From Ignavibacteria bacterium (GTDB lineage Bacteria; Elusimicrobiota; Endomicrobiia; PHAN01), in assembly GCA_041694835.1 (NCBI GenBank), contig JBGFRZ010000036.1:1-49778 (forward strand): a stretch of 49,778 nucleotides of DNA, read 5' to 3'. Position 1 is the stretch's first letter. The number at the start of each line of letters is the position of its first letter. This document shows positions 22,563-48,659 of this stretch, piece after piece. The notes below the pieces were generated by a model that searched no databases, was not told where the DNA came from, and was given only the letters and a program-made list of their open reading frames with translations. The translations under genes and the position numbers were made by a program.

Positions 22563-23653
22563 AAAAAGTTCTTGTTGCGATGTCGGGAGGGGTGGATTCA
22601 TCTGTCGCTGCATACATTCTCAAAAAAGAAGGATATGATGTGGTCGGGGCGACAATGAAGCTCTGGCATTCAGACTCAATGAAGCAAAAAAATGGCAGAT
22701 GCTGTTCTATTGAAGATATCGCCGATGCCCGGCGCGTATGCCATCATTTGGGAATAAAACATTATGTTTTTAATTTCGAACATTTGTTCGAATCTACCGT
22801 CGTAAAAAATTTCATAGACGAATATTTGGCGGGACGGACACCCAATCCCTGCATAGTATGCAACGATTCTGTAAAATTCGACGCTCTTCTACCTAAAGCG
22901 ACGACCATGGGATTTGATTATCTTGCCACCGGCCATTATGCTATAATAGAAAAACATACGAAGAAACATACACGGCCGACTTATTTATTGAAAAAAGGGA
23001 TTGATGTTAAAAAAGACCAGTCGTATTTTCTCTACAGAATGAATCAAAAGCGTCTGTCGAAAACGTTGTTTCCGGTCGGGGAAATGACTAAGAAAGAAGT
23101 CCGCGCGCTTGCTCTTGCTCAAAAGTTGCCCGTGGCGCGAAAAAGCGAGAGTTATGATGTGTGTTTTGTCGGCGACGGAGGTTATGGAAAGTTTTTAGAA
23201 GAGCGAAATGTCATGGAAAGAAAATATCTGTCCGGGAATATAGTTGACGTTGAAGGAAAAATTCGTGGACAGCATTGCGGTCTTCCTTTTTACACGATAG
23301 GTCAGAGAAACGGCCTCGGAATTTCATCCAAAGAAAGGCTTTATGTTTTGTCGCTTGACAAAAACAGAAACGAAGTCATCGTTGGCAACAAAGAAGATGC
23401 TTTTTCAAAAAAGTTTTATGTAAGCGATGTTGTATGGTGTTCAGACGCCTCCCGATTTTCCGGCGCTCTTTCTGTGAAGATAAGGTATCTGTCGGAAGAT
23501 GTTCCAGCTTTGATTTCATACCGGGGGAGGAGAGCGAAAGTGGAGCTTGACACTCCACAGTTTGCCGTAACGACGGGGCAGTCGGCGGTTTTTTACTGCG
23601 GAGACACAGTTATCGGCGGAGGGCTTATAAGCGCTGTTGAGCGGAATCGATGA
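22559..23653 (+). CDS. mnmA: tRNA 2-thiouridylase MnmA
   Basis: AMSGGVDSSV, GRCC, TPNPCIVCN, ATGHYA, KDQSYFL, TIGQR, GQSAVFY. Confidence 0.97.
   Translation: MKKVLVAMSGGVDSSVAAYILKKEGYDVVGATMKLWHSDSMKQKNGRCCSIEDIADARRVCHHLGIKHYVFNFEHLFESTVVKNFIDEYLAGRTPNPCIVCNDSVKFDALLPKATTMGFDYLATGHYAIIEKHTKKHTRPTYLLKKGIDVKKDQSYFLYRMNQKRLSKTLFPVGEMTKKEVRALALAQKLPVARKSESYDVCFVGDGGYGKFLEERNVMERKYLSGNIVDVEGKIRGQHCGLPFYTIGQRNGLGISSKERLYVLSLDKNRNEVIVGNKEDAFSKKFYVSDVVWCSDASRFSGALSVKIRYLSEDVPALISYRGRRAKVELDTPQFAVTTGQSAVFYCGDTVIGGGLISAVERNR
22773..22800 (+). promoter_or_regulatory. SOS-box-like palindrome embedded in the mnmA coding sequence
   Basis: TTCGAACATTTGTTCGAAT (22775-22793) is the exact reverse complement of the core at 36713-36731. 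Confidence 0.5.
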
Positions 23654-35565: not shown

Positions 35566-36396
35566 TCAATGCGACACAAGGACATTCTCTTTGAATCGCT
35601 GTTCGTTTTTTGCGCCGGATTGAATTGCCCCTTTTGTATCAAGCGTTTTTATTCTCTCTGTTGGATGTGGATGTGTTTTAAATAATACCAGAAACTTCGG
35701 CTCATCCAATTTTTGCGATGATAAAGTTTCGATGAAGCTTTTTAACCCCGATGTATCGTAGCCGGTTCTTTTCAAATATTTTGCAGCAAGAATATCAGCC
35801 TCTTCCTCGTCTTTCCGTGAATAACCCTTAAACAGAATATCCGTGGAAAATTCGGTAAGCTTTCTGGTTATCTCTTTATCTTGCGCTATCTCGGTTATTA
35901 TGTCCGTTCCCGCGCCTATAAAATTTGCTTTCTGAATTTCCCTGGCTATGTGTCTTTGTGATATGTGGGCTATCTCGTGTGCAAGGACGCCGGCTAACTC
36001 CGACTCATCTCTCATTATTTTGAGCGCCCCTTTTGTGACAAAAATATAACCCCCGGGGGCTGCAAACGCGTTTACTGTCTCAGAGTTTAAGACGGCGAAA
36101 TGATATTTTATATTTTTTCTGCCACTGTTTCTTACGACAGTTTGTCCCACAAGGTTTAAGTACTTTGTAAGTTTTTCATCATCATAAACGCCATAGCGGG
36201 CGCATAAGTTGCTTGCGACCTCTCTTCCCATCGCTATCTCTTCTTCATCTGAAACCCCTTTCGAGGCTTTTACGATTTTTTCTCCGACCCTAATCGCCTT
36301 TTCCGGATCCACGGGTATTTGCAGCGGCTCGAAGTTAAACGCAAAAACTTTCACAGCTAAAAATAATGTCGCCACCGCAATCGGTTTTAATTTCAT
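35566..36396 (-). CDS. Secreted M48-family metallopeptidase
   Basis: VNAFAAPGGYIFVTKG, ELAGVLAHEIAH, YSRKDEEEAD, THP. Confidence 0.9.
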   Translation of the reverse strand: MKLKPIAVATLFLAVKVFAFNFEPLQIPVDPEKAIRVGEKIVKASKGVSDEEEIAMGREVASNLCARYGVYDDEKLTKYLNLVGQTVVRNSGRKNIKYHFAVLNSETVNAFAAPGGYIFVTKGALKIMRDESELAGVLAHEIAHISQRHIAREIQKANFIGAGTDIITEIAQDKEITRKLTEFSTDILFKGYSRKDEEEADILAAKYLKRTGYDTSGLKSFIETLSSQKLDEPKFLVLFKTHPHPTERIKTLDTKGAIQSGAKNEQRFKENVLVSH

Positions 36397-36683
36397 TTTA
36401 GCCTCCCTTCGGAGACGAAACGTTCGATTTCTTCTTGTTGGAGCGTGAATTTTTCTATTTTCTCCACCGCCGCCCAGTCGCGACCAGAGGAATCACCGAT
36501 GCCTTCCGGCTCGTCAACCCCCCTCACCCCGGCTATCGCGGTTGGCTGTTTTTTCTTTTCCGACTGAACAGAGAGTTTGTCCCAGAAAGTCTTTGCTTTC
36601 TTTCGCGGTTTTACCTGCGAATAAACATTCGAGAAAGCCAGAAGGATTATCGCCGATATTAAGAATAATTTTTTTTTAGTCAT
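36393..36683 (-). CDS. Small secreted hypothetical protein, coupled to the M48 gene
   Basis: GGAGG SD, signal peptide, TAIAGVRG motif, ATGA overlap with the peptidase start. Confidence 0.7.
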   Translation of the reverse strand: MTKKKLFLISAIILLAFSNVYSQVKPRKKAKTFWDKLSVQSEKKKQPTAIAGVRGVDEPEGIGDSSGRDWAAVEKIEKFTLQQEEIERFVSEGRLK

Positions 36684-36700
36684 ATTTCCTCCGTTCAATT

Positions 36701-36752
36701 TTCAGACGGAAAATTCGAACAAATGTTCGAATGTTCCGACGGGAAAATTATT
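36701..36752. repeat. 52-bp palindromic element with SOS-box-like core, copy A
   Basis: Identical to 38706-38757; core CGAACAAATGTTCG at 36716-36729. Confidence 0.9.
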
Positions 36753-37779
36753 CCCCCCTTTTTTTCTTTTTCAGATGTTCTTTTTTGATTGGTTCTTCGC
36801 TTCTTGCAATCGCCATCTCTATCGCCCTTGAATGTCCCGTATTTTCCCACACATCATTGGCCGCAACCCTTACAAGAATTTTTCCATCGGGAGATTTTTC
36901 GGGGTTGAAATCAAAAAAATAAGGCGGGTCATATAGCGTCTTTGAAATTTTTTTCCAATTCTTGCCGTCGGTTGAAATTTCAAGATGCGCCCTTTCAATC
37001 TGATTCCCACTAATTGTTGTTTGTATATTTTTAAATCCCGGTTTTTCCGCTATATCATTTATGGCTGTAATTTCAATCAGTATTTCATTTTTTATATTTT
37101 TTGGAATAAGTTTCAACGCTATAGCCGGCTCGAATATCGTTATTGGAGTTTTCAGCGAGTCATTCTTTAGATTTTTCGGGTTTCCGTCTATTTCCGTATT
37201 TATCCACGAATCGACGCTTTTGTCCCCCCATGCCGCGGCGAGTATGGGAGAAGAGGATGCAGATGTCAAAAATCCGTCGGGCGACCAAAGGATTGCATAG
37301 TTGTCTCCGACGAAGTTCAACGAATCAAGCGGTATTTCCGTCCAGAACCATCTTGCCTCCCCCGTGTCCTCTATGGCGTTTTCGTAGTCGTACTCAAGCG
37401 GTATGTCATCGGTTTTTGTAAGGAACATGTATGAGTTCGCACTCCATTTTGGTTCTTCAGAAACCGCTATAAATATCTCGCTTTTTATGGCTTCTCTTTT
37501 CCAACTTGGTCTGTCAGGTTTTGGTAGCGATTTCATTCTTCCCAATTTTGCTCCCACAAAAGCCCTCGAAAAATCTTTTTTCCTATGATTGAGAGTCAGT
37601 TTTTCTATCCAACCTTGGTTGTAGCCGACGTACCAATTTCCGTCCCATCCTGCGTTCGCAAACAGGGTATAGTGAGGTAAAGGCATTTTGGATATGTAGG
37701 CAGGGTTTGCGTTTTGGGCGTTAATTTCGGAAAAGAGTAAATTAATAGTGATTATCGTCAGAAAATATCCGCGTTTCAT
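36748..37779 (-). CDS. Secreted hypothetical protein (Trp-rich, C-terminal Ig-like segment)
   Basis: 343-aa ORF, signal peptide, starts 2 nt after the parB stop. Confidence 0.75.
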   Translation of the reverse strand: MKRGYFLTIITINLLFSEINAQNANPAYISKMPLPHYTLFANAGWDGNWYVGYNQGWIEKLTLNHRKKDFSRAFVGAKLGRMKSLPKPDRPSWKREAIKSEIFIAVSEEPKWSANSYMFLTKTDDIPLEYDYENAIEDTGEARWFWTEIPLDSLNFVGDNYAILWSPDGFLTSASSSPILAAAWGDKSVDSWINTEIDGNPKNLKNDSLKTPITIFEPAIALKLIPKNIKNEILIEITAINDIAEKPGFKNIQTTISGNQIERAHLEISTDGKNWKKISKTLYDPPYFFDFNPEKSPDGKILVRVAANDVWENTGHSRAIEMAIARSEEPIKKEHLKKKKRGE

Positions 37780-37780
37780 C

Positions 37781-38626
37781 TTACTTTCTCCTTAACAACC
37801 TCGAAAGTCTTTCAAGTTCGTCCAGAGTGTGATAGTAAATCGAAATACTTCCTTTTTTTGAATTACCTTTTATAATTACTTTCGCTCCGATGCTCCGTTG
37901 CAACGTGTTTTCAAGCTGTGTCAACTCGTAACTTTTCTTACGTTTTTTTAAAGGATGCCCCCCTCTTTTTTTTAGTTCGCCGACTATTTTTTCAACATCC
38001 CTGACAGTGAGCCCTTCGTCTATGATTTTTTTGAGAATATCCTTTTGCTTCTGCTTGTCAGAAATAGCCGCAATCGACCTGCCGTGGCCAGCCGATATGA
38101 CGCCATTTTCTATGTGGTATATCAGCTCTTCGGGAAGAGTAAGAAGCCTTATTGTGTTTGCCAGCACCGAGCGGTCCTTCCCTATTATTTTGGATAGCTC
38201 TTCCTGAGTCAGGTTGAATTCGGATATGAGATGCTTGTAGGCATTCGCTTCTTCAATTGGGTTTAGGTCCTCCCTCTGTATGTTTTCTATCAACGAGATA
38301 AGGAATTTTTCTTTTTCATTTACGGTTTTAACTACGACGGGAACTTCTCTTACGCCCGCCATCCTTGCCGCCCTCAGACGCCTTTCGCCCGCTATCAGTT
38401 CGTACTCACCAGGGATGGCCGATTGGGCAACAACAAGTGGCTGGGCGAGGTTGTGGTGTTTTATGGACTCAGCGAGTTCTTTAAGTTTCGCCTCGTCGAA
38501 TTTTTTTCTTGACTGCTGTGGGTTGGGCTTTATGCTTTCGATAGAGATTGAGAGTATAGTATCCGCCCTCTTTTCGGTGTATTTTGGAAGAATCGCCTCC
38601 AGCCCCTTGCCCAGCCCTCTTTTCAT
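37781..38626 (-). CDS. parB: Chromosome partitioning protein ParB/Spo0J
   Basis: MKRGLGKGLEAIL, PNPQQSR, YELIAGERRLRAA, IENIQREDLNPIEEA, HTH; GGAGGA SD before ATG 38626. Confidence 0.97.
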   Translation of the reverse strand: MKRGLGKGLEAILPKYTEKRADTILSISIESIKPNPQQSRKKFDEAKLKELAESIKHHNLAQPLVVAQSAIPGEYELIAGERRLRAARMAGVREVPVVVKTVNEKEKFLISLIENIQREDLNPIEEANAYKHLISEFNLTQEELSKIIGKDRSVLANTIRLLTLPEELIYHIENGVISAGHGRSIAAISDKQKQKDILKKIIDEGLTVRDVEKIVGELKKRGGHPLKKRKKSYELTQLENTLQRSIGAKVIIKGNSKKGSISIYYHTLDELERLSRLLRRK

Positions 38627-38705
38627 AAAATTCCTCCGAATGTTGCCGCTCCCAGTTTTGGTCGAGGCGAATAATCTATCCACAACAGGTTGGTAGGACA
38701 AAATC

Positions 38706-38757
38706 TTCAGACGGAAAATTCGAACAAATGTTCGAATGTTCCGACGGGAAAATTATT
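38706..38757. repeat. 52-bp palindromic element with SOS-box-like core, copy B
   Basis: Identical to 36701-36752; core at 38721-38734. Confidence 0.9.
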
Positions 38758-39001
38758 TGTTCTTAAGCCTGGCCGTTGTTTTGAGCTTCAATCCGCGTGA
38801 GAGTCGCCGGGTGTTACCATATCTAAACTGAAGATGGCCACGCCTCCCGAGATTTTTTATATGATAGTGAACGGTCGACGGGGAGACGTCGAACCGCTTA
38901 GCTATCTCTCTTATTGTCGGAGGTGATCCTCGCCGCTTCAGCGAACTACGGACGAATTTCAAAATCCTTTTTTTGATGCCGCCAAGACCTTCTCTGTTCA
39001 C
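38753..39001 (-). CDS. LexA-type winged-helix DNA-binding domain only (no S24 peptidase domain)
   Basis: RILKFV...GSPPTIREIAKRFDVSPSTVHYHIKNLGRRGHL...SRGL matches the LexA N-domain pattern; ~82 aa; probable GTG start at 39001. Confidence 0.8.
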   Translation of the reverse strand: MNREGLGGIKKRILKFVRSSLKRRGSPPTIREIAKRFDVSPSTVHYHIKNLGRRGHLQFRYGNTRRLSRGLKLKTTARLKNK

Positions 39002-39081
39002 ACCGTTAGAAATCTCCAATAACTTCAGTATTTATTGAAACTTTCAACATTCTCATAAAGAACCCGTAATTTCTAACGGGG
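39001..39081. mobile_element. 81-bp element, TIR C(A/C)CCGTTAGAAAT, TTCA target duplication
   Basis: CACCGTTAGAAAT 39001-39013 / ATTTCTAACGGGG 39069-39081; TTCA at 38997-39000 and 39082-39085. Confidence 0.8.
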
Positions 39082-39082
39082 T

Positions 39083-39844
39083 TCATATCTGTTTTTTCAA
39101 AAATTCATTCGCAAGCTCAATATACACTTCCGAGCCCCTGGAACTTTTATCGTATGTAATGATGGGTTTTCCGTAGCTCGGTGCCTCCGCCAATCTTACC
39201 GTCCGCGGAATTATCGTATCATATACCTTTTCCTTGAAGTACTTCCTGACCTCGTCAATCACCAGATTCGCAAGGTTCAGTCGCGAGTCATACATCGTTA
39301 TCAGAACGCCTTCTATCGCAAGTTTCGGATTCAGCCCTCCTTTTATCAGCTCTATAGTTTTAAGGAGCTGTCCTAATCCTTCAAGGGCGTAGTATTCGCA
39401 TTGGATAGGTATGATGACGGATTTACTTGCGACGAGCGAGTTTATCGTAAGAAATCCGAGCGTCGGCGGGCAGTCTATGACTATATACTTATATATGTTT
39501 TTCAACTTTGTGAGACAGTTTGTCAGGAGATTTTCCCTCCCGGGTTTGTCGGCAAACTCAACTTCCGCCGCTATAAGGTCTATGTTCGACGGTATAGCGT
39601 CAAGCCAGTCGATACTGGTCTTTTTTATCGTGTCTTCCACTTGAGTTTCGCCTATAAGCATTCTATAAATATTTTCGGACGAGTTTTTGTCGAGACCCAG
39701 ACCGCTTGTTGTGTTCGACTGAGGGTCCATGTCTACGATGAGGGTTTCGTGCCCGAGAAAAGCAAGAGATGCAACGAAGTTTATCGCCGTTGTCGTCTTC
39801 CCAACCCCACCTTTCTGGTTCGCTATTGAAATGATTTTACTCAT
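39083..39844 (-). CDS. parA: Chromosome partitioning ATPase ParA/Soj
   Basis: ANQKGGVGKTTT, DMDPQSNTTSGLG, IDCPPTLG, QCEYYALEGL, RLAEAPSYG. Confidence 0.97.
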   Translation of the reverse strand: MSKIISIANQKGGVGKTTTAINFVASLAFLGHETLIVDMDPQSNTTSGLGLDKNSSENIYRMLIGETQVEDTIKKTSIDWLDAIPSNIDLIAAEVEFADKPGRENLLTNCLTKLKNIYKYIVIDCPPTLGFLTINSLVASKSVIIPIQCEYYALEGLGQLLKTIELIKGGLNPKLAIEGVLITMYDSRLNLANLVIDEVRKYFKEKVYDTIIPRTVRLAEAPSYGKPIITYDKSSRGSEVYIELANEFLKKQI

Positions 39845-39847
39845 ATT

Positions 39848-39863
39848 TGTTTCACATGAAACA
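39848..39863. promoter_or_regulatory. parS site
   Basis: TGTTTCACATGAAACA, 15/16 to TGTTTCACGTGAAACA, 3 nt before the parA start codon. Confidence 0.85.
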
Positions 39864-39885
39864 TTTCCTTAGGCAGCGTTATTAT

Positions 39886-40035
39886 GAGATTATTGAAAAA
39901 GTTTTTTACCACGGAATACACGGAAAGAACTACCGAAGACATGGAAAAAATCCGTCGATAATAAAATCTCCGTGTTTCTCTCGTTTTTATTCCGCTCTCC
40001 CTGTGTCAAGGTTTTAGCGAAGCGTCAATGCTCTC
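39886..40035. mobile_element. 150-bp GAG...CTC element, ATTAT target duplication
   Basis: Left end GAGATTATTGAAAAA identical to that at 25684; right end TCAATGCTCTC; ATTAT at 39881-39885 and 40036-40040. Confidence 0.65.
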
Positions 40036-40113
40036 ATTATACCAAAAAATCAAAGGTGAAGTAAAATAAAATTAAAAACGCTCGTTTGGTTATTTAACAT
40101 CATATAGTCTGTT

Positions 40114-40129
40114 TGTTTCACGTGGAACA
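40114..40129. promoter_or_regulatory. parS site
   Basis: TGTTTCACGTGGAACA fits the TGTTNCACGTGAAACA consensus on the reverse strand. Confidence 0.9.
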
Positions 40130-40311
40130 TCGGTTAGAAGTCTCTATATGTCGGTTAGTCTTTTCTGAATTGACGGTTTTTGAAAATCGCGTTTGTCCTG
40201 TCTTGGTGATATTAATCTTGCTAAAAAGTATAAAACAGCGGAGCAAGGCGAATTGCTTTACCGCTTGATTACATCGAAAGACTTCTCTGACGATACGCAA
40301 TCGGGGAGTAG

Positions 40312-42435
40312 TTACCATAGGTCGTATTTGAGCCATCTAATGGCGAGTTCGAAAATAAAAATTACTGTTATTAAAAGGAAAGCATAGATTGTGGTATTCG
40401 CCATCGTTTCGGTTTTTATCTCCGACGCTTTTTTCGGAATTTTCTCATCTATTTTTCTGAGGTCAAATCCCGCCGTATCTATGTAAGTGCCCCCGGTTTT
40501 TTCGGATATATCCTTGAGAAAAGTCGGGTTTATGTCGAGATTTTTCAACTCTTCATAGACGCTTCTTGAAACCTCGACAGAATGGGTTTCCTTCGATATA
40601 AGTCGCCCACCTTTTGAGTAATAGATGTTTATTTTGTAACTCCCTTCCAGAGTCGGTGTGAATGAAAATCTCCACAATGCTCCGCTCTTTGCTTTTTCTG
40701 GTGTGATTTTCGAGCCGTCGGGTGCGGTTATATCGGTCTTGACTTCGATTCCGCCGGTTTGTGGTTTCACCAAAAACTCGCATTCGGTGTCTATGGCGAC
40801 ATTTTTTCTTAAGCCCAATACGTTTGCTTTGCTTTCGTCGAGCGAGCCGGTGAGGTATCCAACCATATTCTTCCAGAAGATATGATATATCTCGGGATAC
40901 TTTGAGTGCATCTTCCATCGCCATGTGGAGTTTGAGCCGAGCGCGGCGGTTCTTCCTTTCCCGTAGTCCCTTGTTGCAAGCACTACGGTGTTTCCGATGT
41001 CAGTTTTCGACCAAGGGTGTCTAATTAGTATTTTGCCCTCGGGGCGAATTTTTAGTTTTTGGGCTCCGTCGAGCTCGGGCAGTTCTTTCCATAAATCGGA
41101 CGGAGTTTCAGTTTCGATGGCAAATAGAGGGGAAGTATGGTCCGTTATCTGCGGTCTGAATATGCCTTCTTCTATGGCATCGGAAGGGTCTTCCATAAAG
41201 ACGGGAAGTATGTCTCTTATGGCGGTGTTTTGATAGCCACCCCTTGCGAATGAGTTATCGCCTCCCATCATGATAAATCCGCCGCCCTCCAGCACCCATT
41301 TTTTAAGTGCTTCAAAGTGCGGAGCGTAGATTCCGAACCTCTGGTAAGTGAAGTTTTCGAAGATTACGAGGTCAAAGTCGGCGATGTCTTTGATAAGCAT
41401 ATTCGCCCCCGGAAAAGGTATCAATGAAAGCTCTTCGTCGGGCACGAGCGCTATGTCTTCAGGGTTTCTCAGTATCACGAAGCTGACGAGCTCTATGTTT
41501 GCGTCGTTTTTAAGATGCTCCCTGAGGAAAGAGTATTCGTAAGACGGCTGGCCGCAGAGATAGAGAACCCTGATTTTTTCCTTTATCGCCTCGACGGTAA
41601 CTTTTGAAGAATTGTTCAGATGTGTAATTTCGCCCGGGTGGGTTGAGACGTCGATTTTGTAGTTGTTTGCGCCCCTTTTTTTAGGTCTGACCACAAATAC
41701 AACCTCCGCTTCGTCTTCATCTCCCGCCTCTATTCTCCGAGTCACCACGACGCCATCTTCATCTGTGAGATTTACCACGATGGGGCTTCCGCGTTTTATG
41801 CCTGCATGGACGAGTTTTGCTTTTACTGTAAAATCCTTTCCCTTAAATGCGAAAGGAGGTGCCTTTATGTCGAATAAAGAAATATCCAAAAATTTTTTCT
41901 TTTCAAATATATCGAAAGAGAAAATCGGGATTTTAGCTTCGCGAACGACTTCTACGCGGGTTGCCTCCTCCGATGTCTGACGCCCGTCTGAGAATAAAAA
42001 TATACCATCAAGATTTGGATATGCGTGGAAGAGGTTTTCAAGAGAGTTTATTATGTCAGTTCTTCCTGAGGATTTGAGTTTAGTTTTTTTATAATCAATA
42101 TGTCTGAAGTTTTCGGAGAAATCGAAAAAACCGATATTGTAGTTCTGCTCAAGATAATTGTGATTGATTTTTAAGTAATTTTTTACATATTCCACTCTCT
42201 TTGTGGCGAACATGCTGTCGGATGTGTCTATCATTACAGCTATCTCGTTTTTTTGCTTTTTGGCGTAGGTGGTTATTTTTGGAGAAAGAACGAGGGCGGT
42301 TAGAATTAATATAGTAAGTGTCCTTAATATCTTCAGCGTCAGCGGAGCCTTGCTTTTTATTGTAAGCCAGATTAAGCTTGAAGTCGCCAAAAATAGTGGT
42401 AGCAAGATGGATAAATTCTGGAAGTCGATTTTCAT
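40312..42435 (-). CDS. Membrane protein with vWA-like, Ig-like and GATase1-like domains (MoxR cluster)
   Basis: IDTSDSM, LFSDG, EGGGFIMMGGDNSF, YGKGR...TWRW, TM helices at both termini. Confidence 0.75.
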   Translation of the reverse strand: MKIDFQNLSILLPLFLATSSLIWLTIKSKAPLTLKILRTLTILILTALVLSPKITTYAKKQKNEIAVMIDTSDSMFATKRVEYVKNYLKINHNYLEQNYNIGFFDFSENFRHIDYKKTKLKSSGRTDIINSLENLFHAYPNLDGIFLFSDGRQTSEEATRVEVVREAKIPIFSFDIFEKKKFLDISLFDIKAPPFAFKGKDFTVKAKLVHAGIKRGSPIVVNLTDEDGVVVTRRIEAGDEDEAEVVFVVRPKKRGANNYKIDVSTHPGEITHLNNSSKVTVEAIKEKIRVLYLCGQPSYEYSFLREHLKNDANIELVSFVILRNPEDIALVPDEELSLIPFPGANMLIKDIADFDLVIFENFTYQRFGIYAPHFEALKKWVLEGGGFIMMGGDNSFARGGYQNTAIRDILPVFMEDPSDAIEEGIFRPQITDHTSPLFAIETETPSDLWKELPELDGAQKLKIRPEGKILIRHPWSKTDIGNTVVLATRDYGKGRTAALGSNSTWRWKMHSKYPEIYHIFWKNMVGYLTGSLDESKANVLGLRKNVAIDTECEFLVKPQTGGIEVKTDITAPDGSKITPEKAKSGALWRFSFTPTLEGSYKINIYYSKGGRLISKETHSVEVSRSVYEELKNLDINPTFLKDISEKTGGTYIDTAGFDLRKIDEKIPKKASEIKTETMANTTIYAFLLITVIFIFELAIRWLKYDLW

Positions 42436-42472
42436 AAGTGAAACATCTTGTCGATAAATTCACACACAAAAT

Positions 42473-42523
42473 TTCAGTCGGTAAATTCGAACAAATGTTC
42501 GAATGTTCCGACTGAGAAAATCA
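42473..42523. repeat. Palindromic element with SOS-box-like core, copy C
   Basis: TCAGTCGG..ATTCGAACAAATGTTCGAAT..CCGACTGA; core at 42488-42501. Confidence 0.88.
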
Positions 42524-43261
42524 CTGTCTGAGCTTCCTTTCTATAAAAGGCTGATGGACGGTATCGCTTTTGTAAGTGCCGGTAAGCGAATACATAATCA
42601 AGTTTATGGTCAACTTATGAGATTCCCATCGCTGCCTGTCCTTGCCGGGGTAGCATTCGTGGAGGTAGTTTCCGAAGTTGTCTTTCTGCCATGTGCCGGA
42701 AACATCATTCCACGAGAGGATTACGGCGAACCTTTCACCTACCGCAATCCCTTCAAGATACTCCCTCCAAATTTTTCTGCCCCCAACCCCTCTCAAGAGA
42801 TAAAAACTCCTGAAGAGCGCGTGTGAAAGAGGAATCTTCTGCCATGCTTTGTCGGGAAAAATTTTCGAGAGTTCGGACTTTATATTTTTTCTGAAATCAG
42901 AATCCACAGTGTCCGAGGCGTCGTCTATAAATATCATTCCCCCCAGATCTATGAAGCGCCTAATGATTTTTGCTTCCGACGGTGAAAACCCCGGAAAATC
43001 GCTTTTTCCTATGAGCCATAGAAAAGGAGAATTGAATATTTTCTCATCTATCTGAACGACCCTCCTTTCGGGGTACGCCTTGACGCTTGTGGTAGTTTCA
43101 AGAAAGTTCATTATCTCGCGCCATATGTTTGGATATGGATCCCAATCTCCCGCGTATTTTATTTGCGCAAAAACGAAAGAATCCCTCTGCGAGTGGTTTT
43201 TGGTCGTCGCACAGAGAGTGGACGCAATCATTAAAAAAACCGCAAAGAATGTTTTTTTCAT
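42521..43261 (-). CDS. DUF4159-domain secreted protein
   Basis: Signal peptide, IKYAGDW, PFLWLIG, GGMIFIDD, HALFRSFY, INLIMYSLTGTYKSD; ATGA overlap with the upstream gene. Confidence 0.8.
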   Translation of the reverse strand: MKKTFFAVFLMIASTLCATTKNHSQRDSFVFAQIKYAGDWDPYPNIWREIMNFLETTTSVKAYPERRVVQIDEKIFNSPFLWLIGKSDFPGFSPSEAKIIRRFIDLGGMIFIDDASDTVDSDFRKNIKSELSKIFPDKAWQKIPLSHALFRSFYLLRGVGGRKIWREYLEGIAVGERFAVILSWNDVSGTWQKDNFGNYLHECYPGKDRQRWESHKLTINLIMYSLTGTYKSDTVHQPFIERKLRQ

Positions 43262-45162
43262 CGGCCTCCCCTGTTTAGGAAATACACAAATATATTTTCG
43301 GCAGCAAGGAGAAAAAGAACTATAATCCACGCCGCCAACGATGAGTCCCTGCCCAAAACGATCGATATCGTTTTTCTCCAGTTTTTTCTATCGACAATGA
43401 ACACGCTTGCGTTTTTTATTTTAAGATCGGAGGTCTGCGTCAGATCGCTTTCGGATGGATTTGTGTTGACTACGAGAAAAATCGATTTTTTTAATTCTTT
43501 ATGCAAAAAGGTTATCTCGTAAAATCCAGGTTTTTCTGGAGTCGGTATGGTGTCGTAAATCCCGGCGATCCTGTCGTTTAACTTAATCGTCGCGCCGCTC
43601 GTCTCGGCGTATTTCCATTTGACAGGCTCGCCCGCAAAGGCGTATATGTCTTTAAACTCTTTTTTAGGCGATAGAATCTTTTCAAGCAGTGGCGCAAAAA
43701 AAGCCTTCGAAATCATGTTCGACCAGGATTTGTTGGCCGATGTGTTGAATATAAATGCGTCGCCTTTAGAGATGAGCAGGGGGTTGGCTTCAGTATCGAA
43801 AAAAAATGGCTCCCACGGTCTTTCATATGAAATTTTAAAAAACTTTTGAGCCGAGACTCTCCAATCGAATTTTTGGTCTTCGCCGAAAATTTCCTTTATC
43901 TTTTCGCCCGGCACGAAAGTCGTTCTTTTCTCAATTTTTCTTGAGAGGGAAACGTCCAGTATTGTTTTTCCATCCTCGACATTATCACCCGGAAAAAAAA
44001 TTATTTTTTTGTCGCCTCCCGTGAGTTTTTTTAGGATGTTTTCGTCGGGGAGGTAGTTTGAAATAATGATTGCATCAATTCTCTTTAAGTCGTAAGAGGC
44101 GAACTGATGAAAGCCTATCGTTTCAAATCTGAAGTTCATTGCGTTGAGGGCTGCTGTAATGTAATACAGCTCCGATCTGTATCCCGGCAGAGGATTTCCG
44201 TCTACAAGCAGGACATTTGGTTGTTCGGTTTTTTCGGGAATAAATCGATAAATATTGTCCTCGGTGAGATTGTCGCTTTTAATTTCAAGGGAGTATTTTT
44301 TATTCGCAGAAGGTTTTAGAAATATCTCGGCTTTATTGTTTCCGTGTTTCAGGTTTACGGCGGTACGGGCCATTTCAGAGCCGTCCTCGTACAAAATTAG
44401 CGATACGTTGCCGTCAAAGCCAAAGCTTCTGATTTCGGCGGTTATAGTATTGTTTATATTTTGAACAATATTCGCTATCGTCAAGTTTCTCTTTGCGGTT
44501 TTTTCGGTTATCAGCGTCACATTTGTGGTTTTTGAAAGGGCGGTATCCTTTTCGAAGTCGCTGATGGCTGAGTCCGAAAACCATATGATGTTTTTTGAAC
44601 CCGCGACTGATTCTGTCATAAAAGTTTCGGCCGCGGTGAGCCCCAAACGATGGTCGGTTTTTTTAACAGTTGGTTTTAATCCCAGAATTTCGTTTTTTAT
44701 TTTTTCGTGATTTACTGCCAGCCCTGTAGATTTATGTTCAATTTTGTCGGAGTATGAAATCACTCCGATTTTTGTAGTTCTTGGCAATTGCTCTAAAAGA
44801 TTCAACGCAACTTTTTTATTTTTTTCAAACTCGGTCTCGCCCAGAAGATTATAATTTAAAGAACACGATGAATCGAAAAGAAAAACTACAGAGGTGTCTT
44901 TCGACGGCTTCGCCTCCTTGCTGTAATAAAGCCATGGCCGCGTGAAGGCAAGAATCAAGAAGAGCAGGAACAGGATTCTTATTGCGAGAAGCGTCTGCTT
45001 TTGCCATTTTTTGAATATTTTTTTCTGACTTAAAATATCCTGAATGAGAGATATGTTGCTGTAATAGATTCTTTTTTTCTTTCTGAACAAAAGATGTATC
45101 AAAAGCGGAATAATGACAGCGGGCAGAAAATACAGAAAAAGTTTATTGAGGAGAAAAAACAT
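43258..45162 (-). CDS. BatA/vWA-domain membrane protein
   Basis: IPLLIHLL N-terminal double-TM motif, AFTRP, LFDSSCS MIDAS-like, FSD, VNTNPSESDL, C-terminal TM. Confidence 0.8.
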   Translation of the reverse strand: MFFLLNKLFLYFLPAVIIPLLIHLLFRKKKRIYYSNISLIQDILSQKKIFKKWQKQTLLAIRILFLLFLILAFTRPWLYYSKEAKPSKDTSVVFLFDSSCSLNYNLLGETEFEKNKKVALNLLEQLPRTTKIGVISYSDKIEHKSTGLAVNHEKIKNEILGLKPTVKKTDHRLGLTAAETFMTESVAGSKNIIWFSDSAISDFEKDTALSKTTNVTLITEKTAKRNLTIANIVQNINNTITAEIRSFGFDGNVSLILYEDGSEMARTAVNLKHGNNKAEIFLKPSANKKYSLEIKSDNLTEDNIYRFIPEKTEQPNVLLVDGNPLPGYRSELYYITAALNAMNFRFETIGFHQFASYDLKRIDAIIISNYLPDENILKKLTGGDKKIIFFPGDNVEDGKTILDVSLSRKIEKRTTFVPGEKIKEIFGEDQKFDWRVSAQKFFKISYERPWEPFFFDTEANPLLISKGDAFIFNTSANKSWSNMISKAFFAPLLEKILSPKKEFKDIYAFAGEPVKWKYAETSGATIKLNDRIAGIYDTIPTPEKPGFYEITFLHKELKKSIFLVVNTNPSESDLTQTSDLKIKNASVFIVDRKNWRKTISIVLGRDSSLAAWIIVLFLLAAENIFVYFLNRGGR

Positions 45163-45166
45163 GGAA

Positions 45167-46027
45167 TTATCCTATTATAAGTGATATCAAATTTTCTGGA
45201 GGGGTTTCGGTTGTCGCAAGATGATATTCAATGCCGCTCTTTCTAAAAGATATCTTATATTTCGAGAGAAATTCGTCGATTCTCTTTTTATATTCTTTGC
45301 GTATATTCCAGAATCCGCCGGTGGAGTCGTTTGTTTCGAGGTCAATAAATTCGAAGTTTTCTCCATAAGGGAAGGTTATCTCGTCGTTGTCCAACAAGTG
45401 AATAACTGTGCAGTCGTGGTGTTGCGAGTTGAGGTATTTCAGAGACGCTATGACTTCACTCTGATTTTCGAAGAGATCCGAGAGCAATATCACAAGAGAG
45501 CGTCTCTTGAGTCTTTTGGCCAGTTCTTCTATCCCTATCGATATACGGCAGAGGCCGTAAGTTTGGGTATTTTCGAGGATTTCAAGTATAGTGTGAAGCC
45601 TCTCCCATCCGCTTTTTGGCGGAAGAAATTCACGAAGTCCGTTTTTAATGACAGCGAATCCAACAGCGTCGCTTTGTTTGATAAATATATAAGATATAGC
45701 GGCGGTGATTCTCTTGGCATATTCGAACTTAGAGATGTTTTTGCCAAAGCCCATCGAATTAGAAGCATCAATGATTATATATGCCCTAAGGTTGGTTTCT
45801 GCCTGGAATTGCTTTACGAAAAATTTTTCGTTTCTTCCGAAGAGTTTCCAGTCGATATGTTTTATCTCGTCACCCGGAACGTACTGCCTGTGTTGGGCGA
45901 AGTCAAGCGAGTAACCTTGGCTTGGACTCGTGTGCCTGCCGCTGACAGTTCCTTCGACGCGTTTTTTCGCCCTCCAGAATTTTCCGGATAGTTTTGAGAC
46001 AAGGTCCACAGGGAGTAGCTTATTCAT
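45167..46027 (-). CDS. DUF58-domain protein
   Basis: GRHTSP..G.S.DFAQHRQYVPGDEIKHIDWK, ETNL, IDASNSM. Confidence 0.9.
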   Translation of the reverse strand: MNKLLPVDLVSKLSGKFWRAKKRVEGTVSGRHTSPSQGYSLDFAQHRQYVPGDEIKHIDWKLFGRNEKFFVKQFQAETNLRAYIIIDASNSMGFGKNISKFEYAKRITAAISYIFIKQSDAVGFAVIKNGLREFLPPKSGWERLHTILEILENTQTYGLCRISIGIEELAKRLKRRSLVILLSDLFENQSEVIASLKYLNSQHHDCTVIHLLDNDEITFPYGENFEFIDLETNDSTGGFWNIRKEYKKRIDEFLSKYKISFRKSGIEYHLATTETPPENLISLIIG

Positions 46028-47018
46028 TCGAAAACTTCGACCAGAGATCGTTTATGAGTTTGTCGCATGTCATACCCTCAGCTTCAGCGGCGTAGTTGAG
46101 GATGATTCTGTGTCTCAATGCGGGATGTATCACTTTCGCCACGTCCTCTTTGGAAACCGTGAACCTTCCGTTCAATATGGCGTTTGCCTTGGCAGCGAGA
46201 ACTATGCTCTGTGAACCCCGCGGCCCCGCCCCCCATTGTATGTATTTTTTTGTCGTTTCGCCTGTGGTATCTAAATCGGGTCTCGTAGAGCTTACGAAGT
46301 TTACGACGAGCTCGAGTATGTTGTCCGAAACGGGGAGTTCGCGAACGATGTTCTGAATCGAGAGTATCTCCCCAGCATCGAGTTTTTTCTCGACGAAAAA
46401 ATCAGAAAGAGAAGTTGTTCTTTCCACTATCAATTTTTCCTCGTCTTTTTTCGGGTAGGAAATATTTATCTGGAAGAAAAACCTGTCGAGCTGGGCTTCG
46501 GGTAGAGGGTATGTTCCCTCCTGTTCTATCGGATTTTGGGTTGCGAGGACGAAAAACGGCGGCTCAAGAGGATATGTCTTTCCGGCGGAAGTTATGTGAA
46601 GCTCCTGCATTGCTTCAAGAAGGGCGCTCTGCGTTTTCGGCGGAGTCCTGTTTATTTCGTCTGCAAGGAGTATCTGTGTAAATATCGGACCTTTCATGAA
46701 TTTGAAAATCTTCTGCGACGTTTCCGGGTCTTCTTGTATTATCTCGGTGCCTATTATGTCAGATGGCATTAAATCCGGGGTGAATTGTATCCTTGAGAAC
46801 TTGAGTCCGAGTATCTTTGAGAGCGTCGAAACGAGAAGTGTCTTTGCCAGACCCGGAACCCCCACTATGAGGCAATGTCCTTTGCTGAAAAAGGCCAGGA
46901 GCATCTGGTCCATGACTTCGTTCTGTCCTATTATTATTTTTGAGAGTTGTTCTTTTATGGATTTGTGAGCGGAAACGAGTTTTTCGACGAGGGCTGTGCT
47001 TTTGTTTTCTTTCGCCAT
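46020..47018 (-). CDS. moxR: MoxR-family AAA+ ATPase
   Basis: GVPGLAKT, RIQFTPDLMPSDIIG, LADEINRTPPKTQSALLEAMQE, ATQNPIEQEGTYPLPEAQLDRF. Confidence 0.95.
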   Translation of the reverse strand: MAKENKSTALVEKLVSAHKSIKEQLSKIIIGQNEVMDQMLLAFFSKGHCLIVGVPGLAKTLLVSTLSKILGLKFSRIQFTPDLMPSDIIGTEIIQEDPETSQKIFKFMKGPIFTQILLADEINRTPPKTQSALLEAMQELHITSAGKTYPLEPPFFVLATQNPIEQEGTYPLPEAQLDRFFFQINISYPKKDEEKLIVERTTSLSDFFVEKKLDAGEILSIQNIVRELPVSDNILELVVNFVSSTRPDLDTTGETTKKYIQWGAGPRGSQSIVLAAKANAILNGRFTVSKEDVAKVIHPALRHRIILNYAAEAEGMTCDKLINDLWSKFSNE

Positions 47019-47084
47019 AGTTTTCTCCAAATATCCGTCCTATTGGTTATCGGAACAAATTAAATTTTCCATACATTTTTCTTT

Positions 47085-47963
47085 CTAACTTCTCGGATGG
47101 AATCTCTTGTGCATTTCTTTCAACCGGCTTTTTTCGACATGAGTGTAAATCTGGGTTGTGGATATAGATGAATGTCCGAGCATCTCCTGGATGCTTCTCA
47201 AATCCGCCCCCCCCTGAAGAAGATGCGATGCGAAGGAGTGACGTATTGTGTGTGGTGTTATGTTCTTTGAGATTTTAGCCGATTTAGCAATTTTTTTCAA
47301 CCTTTTCCAGATGGCGACCCTGCTCAAAGGCTTTCCGGAGTTGTTCGGGAAAACGTAGTCAGAAAACTCTATTTTTTTCGAAAAGACATTGAGATATTTT
47401 TTCAGAAATAGAATAGACGTCTCGTCCATCGGAACAATCCTTTCTTTACCGCCTTTTCCCTTAACTTTTACGAAACCAAGGTTTAAATCAAGATTTTTCT
47501 TCCTAAGATTCAACGTCTCCGAAATCCTCAACCCCGAGGCGTACATCAGCTCGACCATCGCCCTGAAGCGGAGTGCATTTGGTTTTTTGAACGGAATCGC
47601 GCAAAGTAGCCGCGACATCTCGTCTTTCGTAAGGAAATCCGGCAAATAAAGATGAGATTTCGGCAGCTGCATAAATGCCGTCGGGTCGACAGCGAAGTCG
47701 TTTTCCAATATCAGAAACCTGAAAAACTGTCTTATCGATTCAAGGTTTCTGTAAATACTTTTCGAAGAAAGTCCGTTTTTTTTTCTTTGCCAAAGATATT
47801 CGGTCACAGTGTCATGGTCCACTTTTTCTGTGGGGATTCCGTTTTTTTTCAGGTACTCGAAAAAGAACCTGATGTCCGTTTTATATGAGACCACCGTATT
47901 TAGAGAAAGCCCTTTTGCCGCCGACATATAGCTTTCGAATTCGGGTATTAATTTTTTATTCAT
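47085..47963 (-). CDS. xerD: Site-specific tyrosine recombinase XerD
   Basis: ELMYASGLRISE, GKGGKERIVP, TPHTIRHSFASHLLQGGADLRSIQEMLGHSSISTTQIYTHV, FHPR. Confidence 0.9.
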   Translation of the reverse strand: MNKKLIPEFESYMSAAKGLSLNTVVSYKTDIRFFFEYLKKNGIPTEKVDHDTVTEYLWQRKKNGLSSKSIYRNLESIRQFFRFLILENDFAVDPTAFMQLPKSHLYLPDFLTKDEMSRLLCAIPFKKPNALRFRAMVELMYASGLRISETLNLRKKNLDLNLGFVKVKGKGGKERIVPMDETSILFLKKYLNVFSKKIEFSDYVFPNNSGKPLSRVAIWKRLKKIAKSAKISKNITPHTIRHSFASHLLQGGADLRSIQEMLGHSSISTTQIYTHVEKSRLKEMHKRFHPRS

Positions 47964-47967
47964 TTTT

Positions 47968-48015
47968 ATCGTCGAAAGTCTCGAACAAATGTTCGAATTC
48001 TCCGTCTGAGAAATA
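47968..48015. repeat. Palindromic element with SOS-box-like core, copy D (diverged flanks)
   Basis: TCGAACAAATGTTCGAAT..TCCGTCTGAGAAA; core at 47982-47995, 18 nt upstream of the xerD ATG. Confidence 0.8.
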
Positions 48016-48044
48016 TTTACACGGCGTCCCGGGCAGGTGTGGGG

Positions 48045-48659
48045 TTAGAGCCTAAAAAATGGATTAAGTTTTTTTTCCTCGAAAAGCGTGGTCGAAGGGC
48101 CGTGTCCGGGATACAGCAGAAAATTCTTTTGAAGCTTAAGAAATCTCAAGAGCGTTTTGTCCATGGCGGCATCGTCACCCCCTGGCAGGTCGCATCTTCC
48201 CACGGAGTTTTTAAATATGGTGTCTCCCGTAAAAATGAAGTCGTCTCCGAAAAGACATATCCCCCCCGCTGTGTGCCCCGGCGTGTGCCATACGCCAAGA
48301 GAAAAACTTTCCTCTTCTATTTTTTGGCCTTCCGTCAGAGCTATGTCGCCGGGCGGCGAGATGATAATGCGTTCATGGAAATATGAAAGATTTTTTTCAG
48401 GATTTACCAGCGACGGAAACTCGAGCGAATGAGCGTATATCGGAATCGAGTATTTTTTTTTGATCTGTGCGTTCGCTCCTATATGATCGGCGTGAGAGTG
48501 GGTGTTGATTATGCCGAGCGGTTTGATTTTTTTCGATTCAATGAAATCAATGATTTTATCAGGTTCAGCACCAGGATCTATTATAAGAGCGTTATTGTCG
48601 GCGTCCGTGTATATATAGCAATTTGTAGACATCTCGCCAACTACCAGAGTATTTATCAT
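48045..48659 (-). CDS. MBL-fold metallo-hydrolase (glyoxalase II/YcbL-like)
   Basis: TNCY, IDPG, THSHADHIG, HTPGHT.G, FTGDT, PGHG. Confidence 0.92.
   Translation of the reverse strand: MINTLVVGEMSTNCYIYTDADNNALIIDPGAEPDKIIDFIESKKIKPLGIINTHSHADHIGANAQIKKKYSIPIYAHSLEFPSLVNPEKNLSYFHERIIISPPGDIALTEGQKIEEESFSLGVWHTPGHTAGGICLFGDDFIFTGDTIFKNSVGRCDLPGGDDAAMDKTLLRFLKLQKNFLLYPGHGPSTTLFEEKKLNPFFRL

Follow-up and report, generated by a model that had tools for sequence, protein, structure and literature searches.

A protease-less LexA-type winged-helix protein encoded between parA and parB and the amplified palindromes associated with its family

The stretch of DNA analyzed here (the window) is the whole of contig JBGFRZ010000036.1, 49,778 nucleotides long, from assembly GCA_041694835.1, a 1.9-Mb, 97% complete Elusimicrobiota genome in 89 contigs (hereafter G000). 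On its minus strand the window carries a chromosome-partitioning locus in which a small gene, here termed mini-LexA (38753..39019), lies between parA (39083..39844), encoding a 253-aa Soj-type ATPase (Pfam AAA_31, E = 1.1e-63, and CbiA), and parB (37781..38701), the product of which matches Pfam ParB_N, HTH_ParB, and ParB_C. The mini-LexA product is a LexA-type winged helix standing alone, without an S24 domain. A palindromic element (38704..38751) with the 14-mer core CGAACAAATGTTCG (38721–38734) lies in the interval from the mini-LexA stop codon to the parB ribosome-binding site, and we propose it as the putative cognate operator of mini-LexA. The mini-LexA open reading frame (ORF) can start at TTG 39019, giving 88 aa, or at GTG 39001 (38753–39001, 82 aa), which has GGAG in front and is the likelier start. 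For parB, the sequence and the N termini of homologues indicate that the true start is likely ATG 38626, which is preceded by GGAGG. Upstream of parA are two parS-like sites, TGTTTCACATGAAACA (39848..39863, just upstream of the gene) and TGTTTCACGTGGAACA (40114..40129), each with one mismatch to what we take to be the parS consensus; the whole G000 assembly contains no other site with at most one mismatch. These sites appear in ORF lists as spurious ORFs starting MFHMKHF and MFHVEHR. The locus thus has a ParA ATPase, a ParB CTPase-fold protein, and parS sites, as ParABS systems do, and mini-LexA is an addition to ParABS, outside its known components.

The first-pass annotation of this DNA described the small ORF as a LexA-like winged helix and nothing more, a description with which Pfam, Protein Data Bank (PDB) profile searches, and fold comparison all agree. 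The Pfam LexA_DNA_bind model (PF01726) matches with an E value of 1.4e-12 and 47.7 bits, above the curated cut-off, and the match spans residues 15–71 (profile positions 7–64 of 65); the other Pfam matches are to generic helix-turn-helix models alone. The recognition helix reads SPSTVHYH. Profile searches with the sequence retrieve LexA N-terminal domains from the PDB with E values of 4e-11 to 2e-9. The AlphaFold model (mean predicted local distance difference test score 80.4) consists of three helices and a two-strand wing; its nine best PDB fold matches are all LexA N-terminal domains, and it superimposes on Escherichia coli LexA with a root mean square deviation of 1.5–1.6 Å across 71–74 columns. 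A homodimer prediction (two copies, 28-row alignment) scored 0.00, which gives no verdict and was not used as evidence. The protein ends directly after the wing (residue 88) and the palindrome begins 19 nt downstream of the ORF, so that no room is left for an S24 domain. Consistent with this, Pfam PF00717 (S24) has no match in the ORF and no S24 remnant follows it. In the absence of that domain, RecA-stimulated self-cleavage of mini-LexA would, judging from the sequence, be structurally impossible. A decaying lexA fragment was also considered and is ruled out: 22 paralogues and the homologues found in protein libraries have the same length and end point, and no S24 remnant is present. Mini-LexA is an intact member of an undescribed family of 63–100-aa proteins consisting only of a LexA-type winged helix, and comparison supports the view that it is a real, conserved, protease-less protein of LexA type.

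The element before parB is one of several. Five copies of the core CGAACAAATGTTCG are present in the window, compared with 0.00 expected, and none of 100 shuffles gave five. Four copies, at 36716, 38721, 42488, and 47982 on the plus strand, fill short gaps separating co-directional minus-strand genes and belong to a type of element that we call class A, a hairpin-forming palindrome of ∼48 bp with the center T-CGAAC-AAAT-GTTCG-A. In addition to the parB element, these are the element at 36699..36746 (core 36716–36729), before a 101-aa secreted protein and M48 peptidase pair; the element at 42471..42518 (core 42488–42501), between the DUF4159 gene and a 707-aa GATase1-like gene, the last of the MoxR/Bat cluster; and the element at 47965..48012 (core 47982–47995), in the gap between a metallo-beta-lactamase-fold gene and xerD, in which the left arm is degenerate. 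The first-pass annotation had recognized these four, their exact common core, and the genes that they precede, all of which stands; its count did not, as it missed a fifth, one-armed copy (22775..22810; core 22777–22790, a minus-strand match at 22777) within the mnmA coding sequence. That copy encodes FEHLFE and the MnmA protein sequence shows no evident length change. Three of the four intergenic copies fold into strong RNA hairpins (−20.8 to −22.9 kcal/mol, z −4.7 to −5.4), among them the parB copy (−20.8 kcal/mol, z −4.7) and the secreted protein/M48 copy (−22.0 kcal/mol, z −5.4); the xerD copy folds weakly (−11.1 kcal/mol, z −0.4). Of the 29 class A copies of the genome, 5 fall in the window, where 0.76 would be expected (Poisson 0.0011), and the presence of four copies within 11.3 kb was matched by 45 of 5,000 random placements. 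This local enrichment fits either local spread from a source copy or a domain-marking role.

Across G000 there are 56 CGAAC-N4-GTTCG sites, 49 of which are exact copies of the 14-mer. A mismatch scan with the 14-mer gave 49 exact, 8 one-mismatch, and 15 two-mismatch sites, compared with 0, 2, and 12 for a reversed-pattern control; thus, the site family is unusually sharp. Class A accounts for 29 sites of the form T-CGAACAAATGTTCG-A, with the conserved arm consensus tTtcaGaCG..AAATT and often an inverted arm opposite. Class B accounts for 23, in which the box is flanked by C or G, stands singly or in 17-bp tandem arrays (box-CCC-box), and often lies between AATAACC and GGTTATT. The other four are mixed. 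A crude ORF call leaves 11.5% of the genome as non-coding DNA, and this fraction contains 29 of the 56 sites; the others overlap called ORFs, some through over-long start calls, and at least some are truly coding. In an amidohydrolase gene (contig C65, 4424–4471, locus L137), three 17-bp box units (51 bp) stand in frame and encode 17 residues in place of 8, a net gain of 9 aa relative to the orthologues in G001, G002, and G048. Similar arrays are found in ORFs on contigs C28, C30, C64, and C70, and a TrxB-like protein contains a double box. The idea that the site set is specific to this locus was therefore not borne out, since 29 class A copies are spread over the genome and five are in the window. 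The copies are scattered as those of a plain repeat would be, but they are not without a link to the locus, as the association with the mini-LexA protein family, described below, holds across genomes. G000 also contains other repeats: CCCGATAAATCGGG (45 copies), CCTCT-N4-AGAGG (38), AAGTG-N4-CACTT (23), and GCAGACCAAGGTCTGC (16). The first and third of these share one ∼120-bp element beginning TAAAAACAAAG, and example loci of such families are C6 10903 and C41 7079.

Comparison with G001, a genome of the same family, shows how some of the elements came to their places. G001 retains the full gene order from the beta-lactamase-fold gene through M48. In that genome the beta-lactamase-fold gene overlaps xerD, and in G000 a gap of 81 nt, filled by the element, separates the two; likewise, the junction between DUF4159 and the GATase1-like gene measures 28 nt in G001 and 85 nt in G000, again filled by the element. 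Because these junctions are tight in G001, the elements at xerD and at the last Bat gene are additions to an older string of genes. At a different site, an identical 29-bp stretch (GGTTGACATT-box-ATATT) is located upstream of orthologous radical-SAM genes in two genera (G000 C64 32912 and G002 L017 3091), where the box sits between TTGACA and TATTCT/TATTTA hexamers on the opposite strand.

A HMMER pass through 1.84 billion representative proteins gave 615 matches at E ≤ 1e-3. These include stand-alone proteins of 63–115 aa, among them an 81-aa protein 57% identical to mini-LexA (P0002, E = 7.5e-20) and the further short homologues P0006 and P0010. Other matches (P0001, P0003, P0004, and P0009) contain 2 to 11 tandem LexA-type winged helices, as in an 818-aa protein with 11 matched stretches; such proteins could match tandem box arrays. 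The exact 88-aa sequence is absent from the protein collection searched, and a word-index search among proteins of 48–154 aa returned five candidates, none of which scored. A scan of genome contigs with the family alignment showed no close mini form among the best 80 of 561 relatives, which matched at 32–48% and whose titles name mainly other phyla, with one Elusimicrobiota record. Similarly, a scan of metagenome contigs with the single protein gave 31 relatives, the best 58% identical, and no closer relative of the G000 copy.

The profile of the short-form family was then used on 401 Elusimicrobiota genomes. At E ≤ 1e-8 it matches 128 of them, mostly through canonical LexAs in frames of ∼200 aa. 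At E ≤ 1e-20 it matches nine: G000, G018, and seven genomes (G044, G048, G059, G061, G063, G067, and G069; 1–7 copies each) of family f19, which lies outside the class of G000. Stand-alone short members are confined, among the 401, to G000 and this distant family; short frames in G243 (97 aa) and G318 (123 aa) score like canonical LexAs, and the same-family genomes G001 and G002 gave no LexA-type domain. The distribution of the exact 14-mer follows that of the strong matches. It is present in eight of the nine genomes (G000, 49 copies; G048, 43; G061, 21; G059, 10; G063, 5; G067, 5; G044, 2; G069, 1), G018 being the exception with none, and in 12 of the 392 others with one or two copies each, leaving 381 of the 401 without it. 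The four of 11 sampled f19 genomes that lack the mini form have no copy. As relatives are not independent, this co-occurrence amounts to two lineages and one within-family contrast, not to 401 trials. Even so, a link between the mini-LexA family and the palindromes is strongly indicated by these genome comparisons.

CGAAC-N4-GTTCG is the LexA/SOS box of Gram-positive type (Cheo box), and the first-pass annotation raised the alternative that a full LexA elsewhere in the genome places the segregation genes under SOS control. This was not borne out. PF01726 has only two matches in G000, mini-LexA and the C terminus of a 356-aa prephenate dehydrogenase (TyrA), and the only PF00717 match is a 114-aa protein adjoining a radical-SAM gene on another contig; no protein combining LexA_DNA_bind and S24 was found in the 97% complete assembly. 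Nor were boxes found where a look at recA and uvrA might have revealed them: there are none with up to two mismatches near recA and no exact ones on the uvrA contig (C45). About half of 40 class relatives have a canonical LexA of ∼200 aa, and each of the 40 contains 0–4 CGAAC-N4-GTTCG sites, the control level, compared with 56 in G000. With no canonical LexA found and no box at recA or uvrA in these searches, SOS control is rejected.

The parA–mini-LexA–parB order holds up beyond G000. It recurs in three f19 genomes of genus g42 (loci L108, L110, and L111), where the mini-LexA is 82–83 aa long and overlaps the end of parA. The G000 ParA is 71% identical to that of G001 and 60–62% identical to f19 ParA; being closer to the former, it indicates that the backbone of the par operon was vertically inherited. 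In G001 the interval between parA and parB holds an unrelated 78-aa hydrophobic ORF. The mini-LexA insert either is ancient and was lost in G001 or entered the same position on two occasions. In four of four genomes (G000, G044, G059, and G063), the parB ribosome-binding site is separated from the mini gene by a palindrome whose arms are similar from one genome to the next; the f19 form of the arm, ...TTTTCAGACGG, continues into the AGG of that site. The core of the palindrome changes from genome to genome along with the recognition helix of the adjacent protein: CGAAC-ATTT-GTTCG with STVHYH in G000, GGAAC-AAAT-GTTCC with GTAHRH in G044, and ACTAC-AAAT-GTAT with QTVQKH in G059 and with RTVTSH in G063. 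In G000, G044, and G059 the core at the par locus is also the core amplified in the same genome. Indeed, G044 has 14 GGAAC boxes, compared with two or three in four other f19 genomes, and G059 has five palindromic ACTAC sites, compared with none in G044; the 40 f19 box loci inspected included one class-A-like site, compared with the 29 class A sites of G000. The box before parB keeps its place in two lineages even as its core changes, and for this reason it is best viewed as a selected control point.

The par-linked genes are not alone in having palindromes of their own. Among f19 paralogues with flanking sequence, 18 of 22 have a perfect or one-mismatch N5-AWWT-N5 palindrome at a gene end, either no more than about 50 bp ahead of the start or at the stop, which it overlaps or closely follows; often both ends have one. 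The half-sites are diverse (AGAGC, AGGAC/TGGAC, TAAGC, AGTAC, AGTCC, ACTAC, ATGAC, ATACC, TTAAC/TAAAC, GGAAC, and CGAAC). For the four half-site types that were counted, each is amplified, to about 5–50 dispersed copies, in genomes with a matching paralogue. For example, AGAGC boxes number 19 in G048, 8 in G061, 2 in G059, 1 in G063, and 0 in G069, and WGGAC boxes number 23, 9, 7, 6, and 9 in the same genomes, with controls of 0 for both; G069, which has only WGGAC-type paralogues, has boxes of that type and no AGAGC boxes. One paralogue has an AGTAC palindrome at its stop codon that recurs in two metagenome contigs with the same arrangement of glycosyltransferase, mini-LexA, and membrane-protein genes.

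The pairs also suggest a basis for specificity. Helix position 6 is His, Gln, or Thr in 14 of the 18 paralogues with an assigned half-site, and its identity tracks position 3 of the half-site: His goes with a purine in nine of nine cases and Gln or Thr with T in five of five, while the four paralogues with Met or Gly follow no single half-site rule. The switch between His and Gln/Thr is seen among close relatives as well (G044 vs. G059/G063, and P0033 vs. two L160 paralogues). From these comparisons, covariation of helix and half-site is suggestive, not proven. A canonical LexA of 192 aa with a similar helix, at metagenome locus L230, has AGAACATTTGTTCT (2927–2940) between a −35 TTGACT and a −10 TATAAT, and so the 5-4-5 grammar with an A/T spacer is the ordinary operator grammar of this type of LexA. 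At L230 the lexA gene is followed by an 83-aa ORF and, further down, by a 259-aa ORF resembling a DinB-type polymerase by eye; the region has the appearance of a standard SOS cassette that uses this operator grammar.

A second protein in G000 has a winged helix of this kind. The 356-aa TyrA (C70 25640–26710; L002 634–1704) has a LexA-type winged helix at its C terminus; its gene contains one box, translated as NRTNVR, and aroA is preceded by a double box. Fusions are present in G000, G048, and G067, and the box layout is repeated in G067 (L115) and G048 (L163). G059 TyrA keeps the internal box and has no winged helix, and in G063 the internal tyrA box is kept and no fused helix was detected. 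The TyrA–winged-helix fusion could be a metabolite-sensing regulator. The boxes of f19 are almost all of class B (40 loci inspected), and a division that assigns class B to the TyrA-type helix and class A to the par-linked one fits the distribution, although it is not proven. A different fusion, a 441-aa LacI-like protein with a C-terminal LexA-type winged helix (E = 2e-23 to the mini-family profile), is encoded in G018 (L114 421–1746), a genome with no CGAACAAATGTTCG box.

Read along the minus strand, the region around the par genes begins with the metallo-beta-lactamase-fold gene, an element, xerD, MoxR, DUF58, BatA/VWA, DUF4159, and a second element; it continues with the 707-aa GATase1-like gene, the two parS-like sites, parA, mini-LexA, and the parB element; and it ends with parB, a 343-aa gene of unknown type, the fourth element, the 101-aa secreted protein, and the M48 peptidase. 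Right after the parA stop codon and ahead of mini-LexA, a consensus scan places a terminator-like hairpin (39063..39080, minus strand), and mini-LexA may therefore have its own promoter. A consensus promoter scan of 36300–48300 gave 21 sites, compared with 16.8 expected, and is uninformative for the elements save in one case, a non-coding-strand match with a −10 hexamer directly adjoining the 42488 core.

Taken as a whole, the observations are best explained by a family of mini-LexA proteins that has its own amplified palindromes, binds them independently of RecA, and locally controls parB, a reading that we consider somewhat better than evenly likely to be correct. The analysis shows the domain and fold, the lack of S24, the copy numbers, the synteny, the joint occurrence of family and box across genomes, and the matching of paralogues with palindromes; we infer DNA binding by mini-LexA, its oligomeric state, and its regulatory effect from sequence and comparison. 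In this explanation mini-LexA would bind the boxes through its LexA recognition helix and, as it has no S24 domain, the putative binding would be independent of RecA and of DNA damage. Protein bound at the element before parB, serving as a roadblock or repressor, would set the ratio of parB to parA output, an effect to which the RNA hairpin at the element could add. The copies at xerD, the last Bat gene, and the secreted protein/M48 pair would have been sown by repeat dispersal and would either bring those genes under mini-LexA or act solely as REP-like (repetitive extragenic palindrome-like) hairpins.

Several observations weigh against this explanation. LexA N-terminal domains dimerize via the C-terminal domain, which the mini form is missing. 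The sites are near-invariant and some lie in frame within genes, which gives them the look of dispersed repeats and not of a selected regulon. The G001 gene order is complete without mini-LexA or elements, and since G001 keeps that order without both, neither is essential to the par operon. G002 (89% complete), which has no LexA-type domain, keeps the 29-bp stretch with its exact box. The pairing of boxes and paralogues has gaps: the WGGAC boxes of G059 and G063 have no matching paralogue that was found, and no paralogue was seen adjoining any of the CGAAC boxes of G059 (22) and G061 (42). In Mantel comparisons with half-site distance, the correlation is weak and the helix (r = 0.17, P = 0.04) does no better than the rest of the protein (r = 0.18, P = 0.03), and common descent explains part of the covariation between helix and half-site. 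Finally, the TyrA-fused helix, being flanked by CGAAC boxes, could be the reader of some or all of them.

The REPIN-RAYT pattern (REP doublets forming hairpins, with REP-associated tyrosine transposases), as outlined in parts of PMC3116915 and PMC3337134, offers a close comparison with a repeat system. As in the portions of those accounts that we draw on, the palindromes here are short, dispersed, and mostly intergenic, doublets and arrays occur, copies of its own repeat border the partner gene, and there is one repeat family per paralogue, with several pairs per genome. The tens of dispersed, mostly extragenic palindromes of that pattern have a counterpart in the 56 sites of G000 (29 non-coding, hairpin z about −5), and the partner flanked by cognate repeats has one in the 18 of 22 paralogues, with family-specific amplification. 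The partner itself differs, being a non-catalytic winged helix of ∼80 aa in place of the HUH/Y1 tyrosine transposase of the sections cited, and one mini-LexA member is built into the parAB operon. On this basis, the family could constitute a REPIN-like partnership with no host regulatory role, in which the repeats are selfish or semi-domesticated, each mini-LexA is a dedicated heritable partner that recruits a host enzyme for spread or tames the repeats, and effects on parB and xerD are incidental. The bracketing of genes by their own palindromes, with several paralogue–repeat pairs per genome as in the portions of the RAYT/REPIN accounts cited, the near-invariance of the sites and the conservation of arms beyond the core, the occupation of junctions that are tight in G001, the 9 aa added in frame to the amidohydrolase by the triple array, and the preference for non-coding DNA (by the crude ORF call) would all be expected of such repeats. 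However, a winged helix of 80 aa lacks the catalytic residues that transposition requires, and the position before parB is kept in two distant lineages despite the change of core, which argues for a selected local function. G000 does have one Y1 transposase gene (PF01797, contig C41, 8757–9467), but it is flanked by a different REP, with GGGGACGGTCCTC-type repeats and no boxes. A partnership with no regulatory role is thus possible, with a clearly smaller chance of being right than of being wrong. RAYT-driven REPs as the source of the boxes were tried as a separate candidate and are ruled out, as the sole Y1 transposase has its own, different flanking repeats. The inverted AATTGGGGACGGTCCTCAATT-type repeats that flank this RAYT-like gene give it the look of a classical REP-RAYT pair.

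Rickettsia palindromic elements are repeat units tolerated in frame within protein-coding genes, and the in-frame repeats of G000, such as the triple 17-bp array in the amidohydrolase, are alike in this respect. The unit here is far shorter (17 bp), and a candidate cognate binding protein exists.

Other comparisons come from chromosome organization. Noc with its NBS sites and MatP with matS are DNA-binding proteins with tens of dispersed palindromic sites of 13–14 bp. Mini-LexA resembles them in being encoded at a par locus in a genome with tens of dispersed 14-bp palindromes; it differs in that its fold is unrelated, its sites are parts of larger repeats, and neither a regional bias nor a division role is in evidence in an assembly of 89 contigs, the local clustering on the par contig being that of the 45 in 5,000 placements. 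To our knowledge, no Noc- or MatP-like factor has been known in this phylum. A partnership of repeats and proteins, in which non-catalytic, protease-less LexA-derived helices take the role of transposases as heritable partners of private families of dispersed 14-bp palindromes, the two coevolve in specificity, and the par-linked member organizes or times segregation as an analogue of Noc or MatP, is conceivable, and we give it a minor share of our confidence. As a separate possibility, mini-LexA would be a chromosome organizer that marks a domain through dispersed 14-bp palindromes in the manner of Noc/NBS or MatP/matS and serves segregation or division, not transcription. Four genomes from two lineages have the gene inside the parAB operon, the sole two parS-like sites in G000 are at most 1.1 kb from it, the 29 dispersed palindromes are locally enriched around the par locus, and some proteins of the family have 2 to 11 tandem winged helices, as some genomes have tandem box arrays. 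Nevertheless, the majority of paralogues lie away from par genes, chromosome segregation in G001 proceeds without mini-LexA, mini-LexA has no membrane-targeting or bridging domain, and the 89-contig assembly does not allow the distribution of sites along the chromosome to be read. We therefore regard a dedicated organizer as unlikely.

It is also improbable that the reader of the boxes is the winged helix fused to TyrA and that the par-linked mini-LexA has some other target or none. Such a reader would account for the box inside the tyrA gene and the double box before aroA in G000, for the equivalent layout in G067 and G048, and for the fact that class B boxes and the fusion are both common to G000 and f19. 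In contrast, class A is almost private to G000 (one class-A-like site among the 40 f19 loci), as is a par-linked mini-LexA adjacent to CGAAC, and in G044 and G059 the amplified box follows the local core of the par-linked paralogue.

Plain REP repeats or miniature inverted-repeat transposable elements that look like LexA boxes by chance, with an unrelated small regulator beside one copy, are strongly disfavored. The elements do form REP-like hairpins and G000 is rich in other repeat families, CCCGATAAATCGGG, CCTCT-N4-AGAGG, and AAGTG-N4-CACTT among them; yet the co-occurrence of protein family and 14-mer across 401 genomes, the pairing of palindrome and paralogue in 18 of 22 cases, and the match between genome-specific amplification and the local core all point the other way. 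Hardly any likelihood attaches to an SOS regulon in which a full-length LexA encoded elsewhere represses the sites and puts the segregation genes under DNA-damage control, for, although the core fits the Gram-positive-type LexA box, the PF01726 matches of G000 are the mini form and the TyrA fusion, its lone PF00717 match has 114 aa, the recA region and the uvrA contig are without boxes at the stringencies given above, and class relatives that do have a canonical LexA hold just 0–4 such boxes.

Among the closest known relations of mini-LexA is LexA itself, with which it shares the winged-helix domain, in sequence and in fold, and the 5-4-5 palindromic grammar of the operator. It differs from LexA in having no linker, no cleavage site, and no S24 domain for dimerization and autocleavage, and its family differs in that several paralogues with different half-sites occur in one genome. 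Moreover, the LexA SOS system is unlike the arrangement seen here, in which recA and uvrA have no boxes and 56 near-identical sites are embedded in repeats. A literature search of article texts, supplements excluded, found nothing on stand-alone LexA N-terminal-domain proteins, Elusimicrobia LexA, or SOS-box-bearing repeats. The parts of PMC8565304 consulted concern a different kind of non-canonical LexA in which S24 is retained, and in the parts of PMC7739468 consulted Elusimicrobia are named in the reference list only. As far as these searches reach, the LexA head and REP-like repeats are known, and the partnership between them, the paralogue-specific palindromes, and the parA-X-parB module are new within the literature searched.

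These findings bear on how such genomes are read. For annotation, CGAAC-N4-GTTCG matches in these genomes should not be taken as an SOS regulon. With roughly 12 natural pairs of helix and half-site, the family supplies ready material for deciphering the recognition code of LexA-type winged helices. The LexA DNA-binding domain has been thought to work only within a cleavable dimer; stand-alone LexA heads with their own palindromes, if true, would mean that the domain has been reused as a RecA-blind regulator or as a repeat-binding module. Together with REPIN-RAYT, they would also make two cases in which short palindromic repeats are maintained alongside a dedicated single-copy partner gene, and as the partner here cannot be a transposase, they raise the question of how the repeats spread. 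For the par locus, the parA-X-parB arrangement, with a putative operator before parB, would represent an undescribed control point of ParABS.

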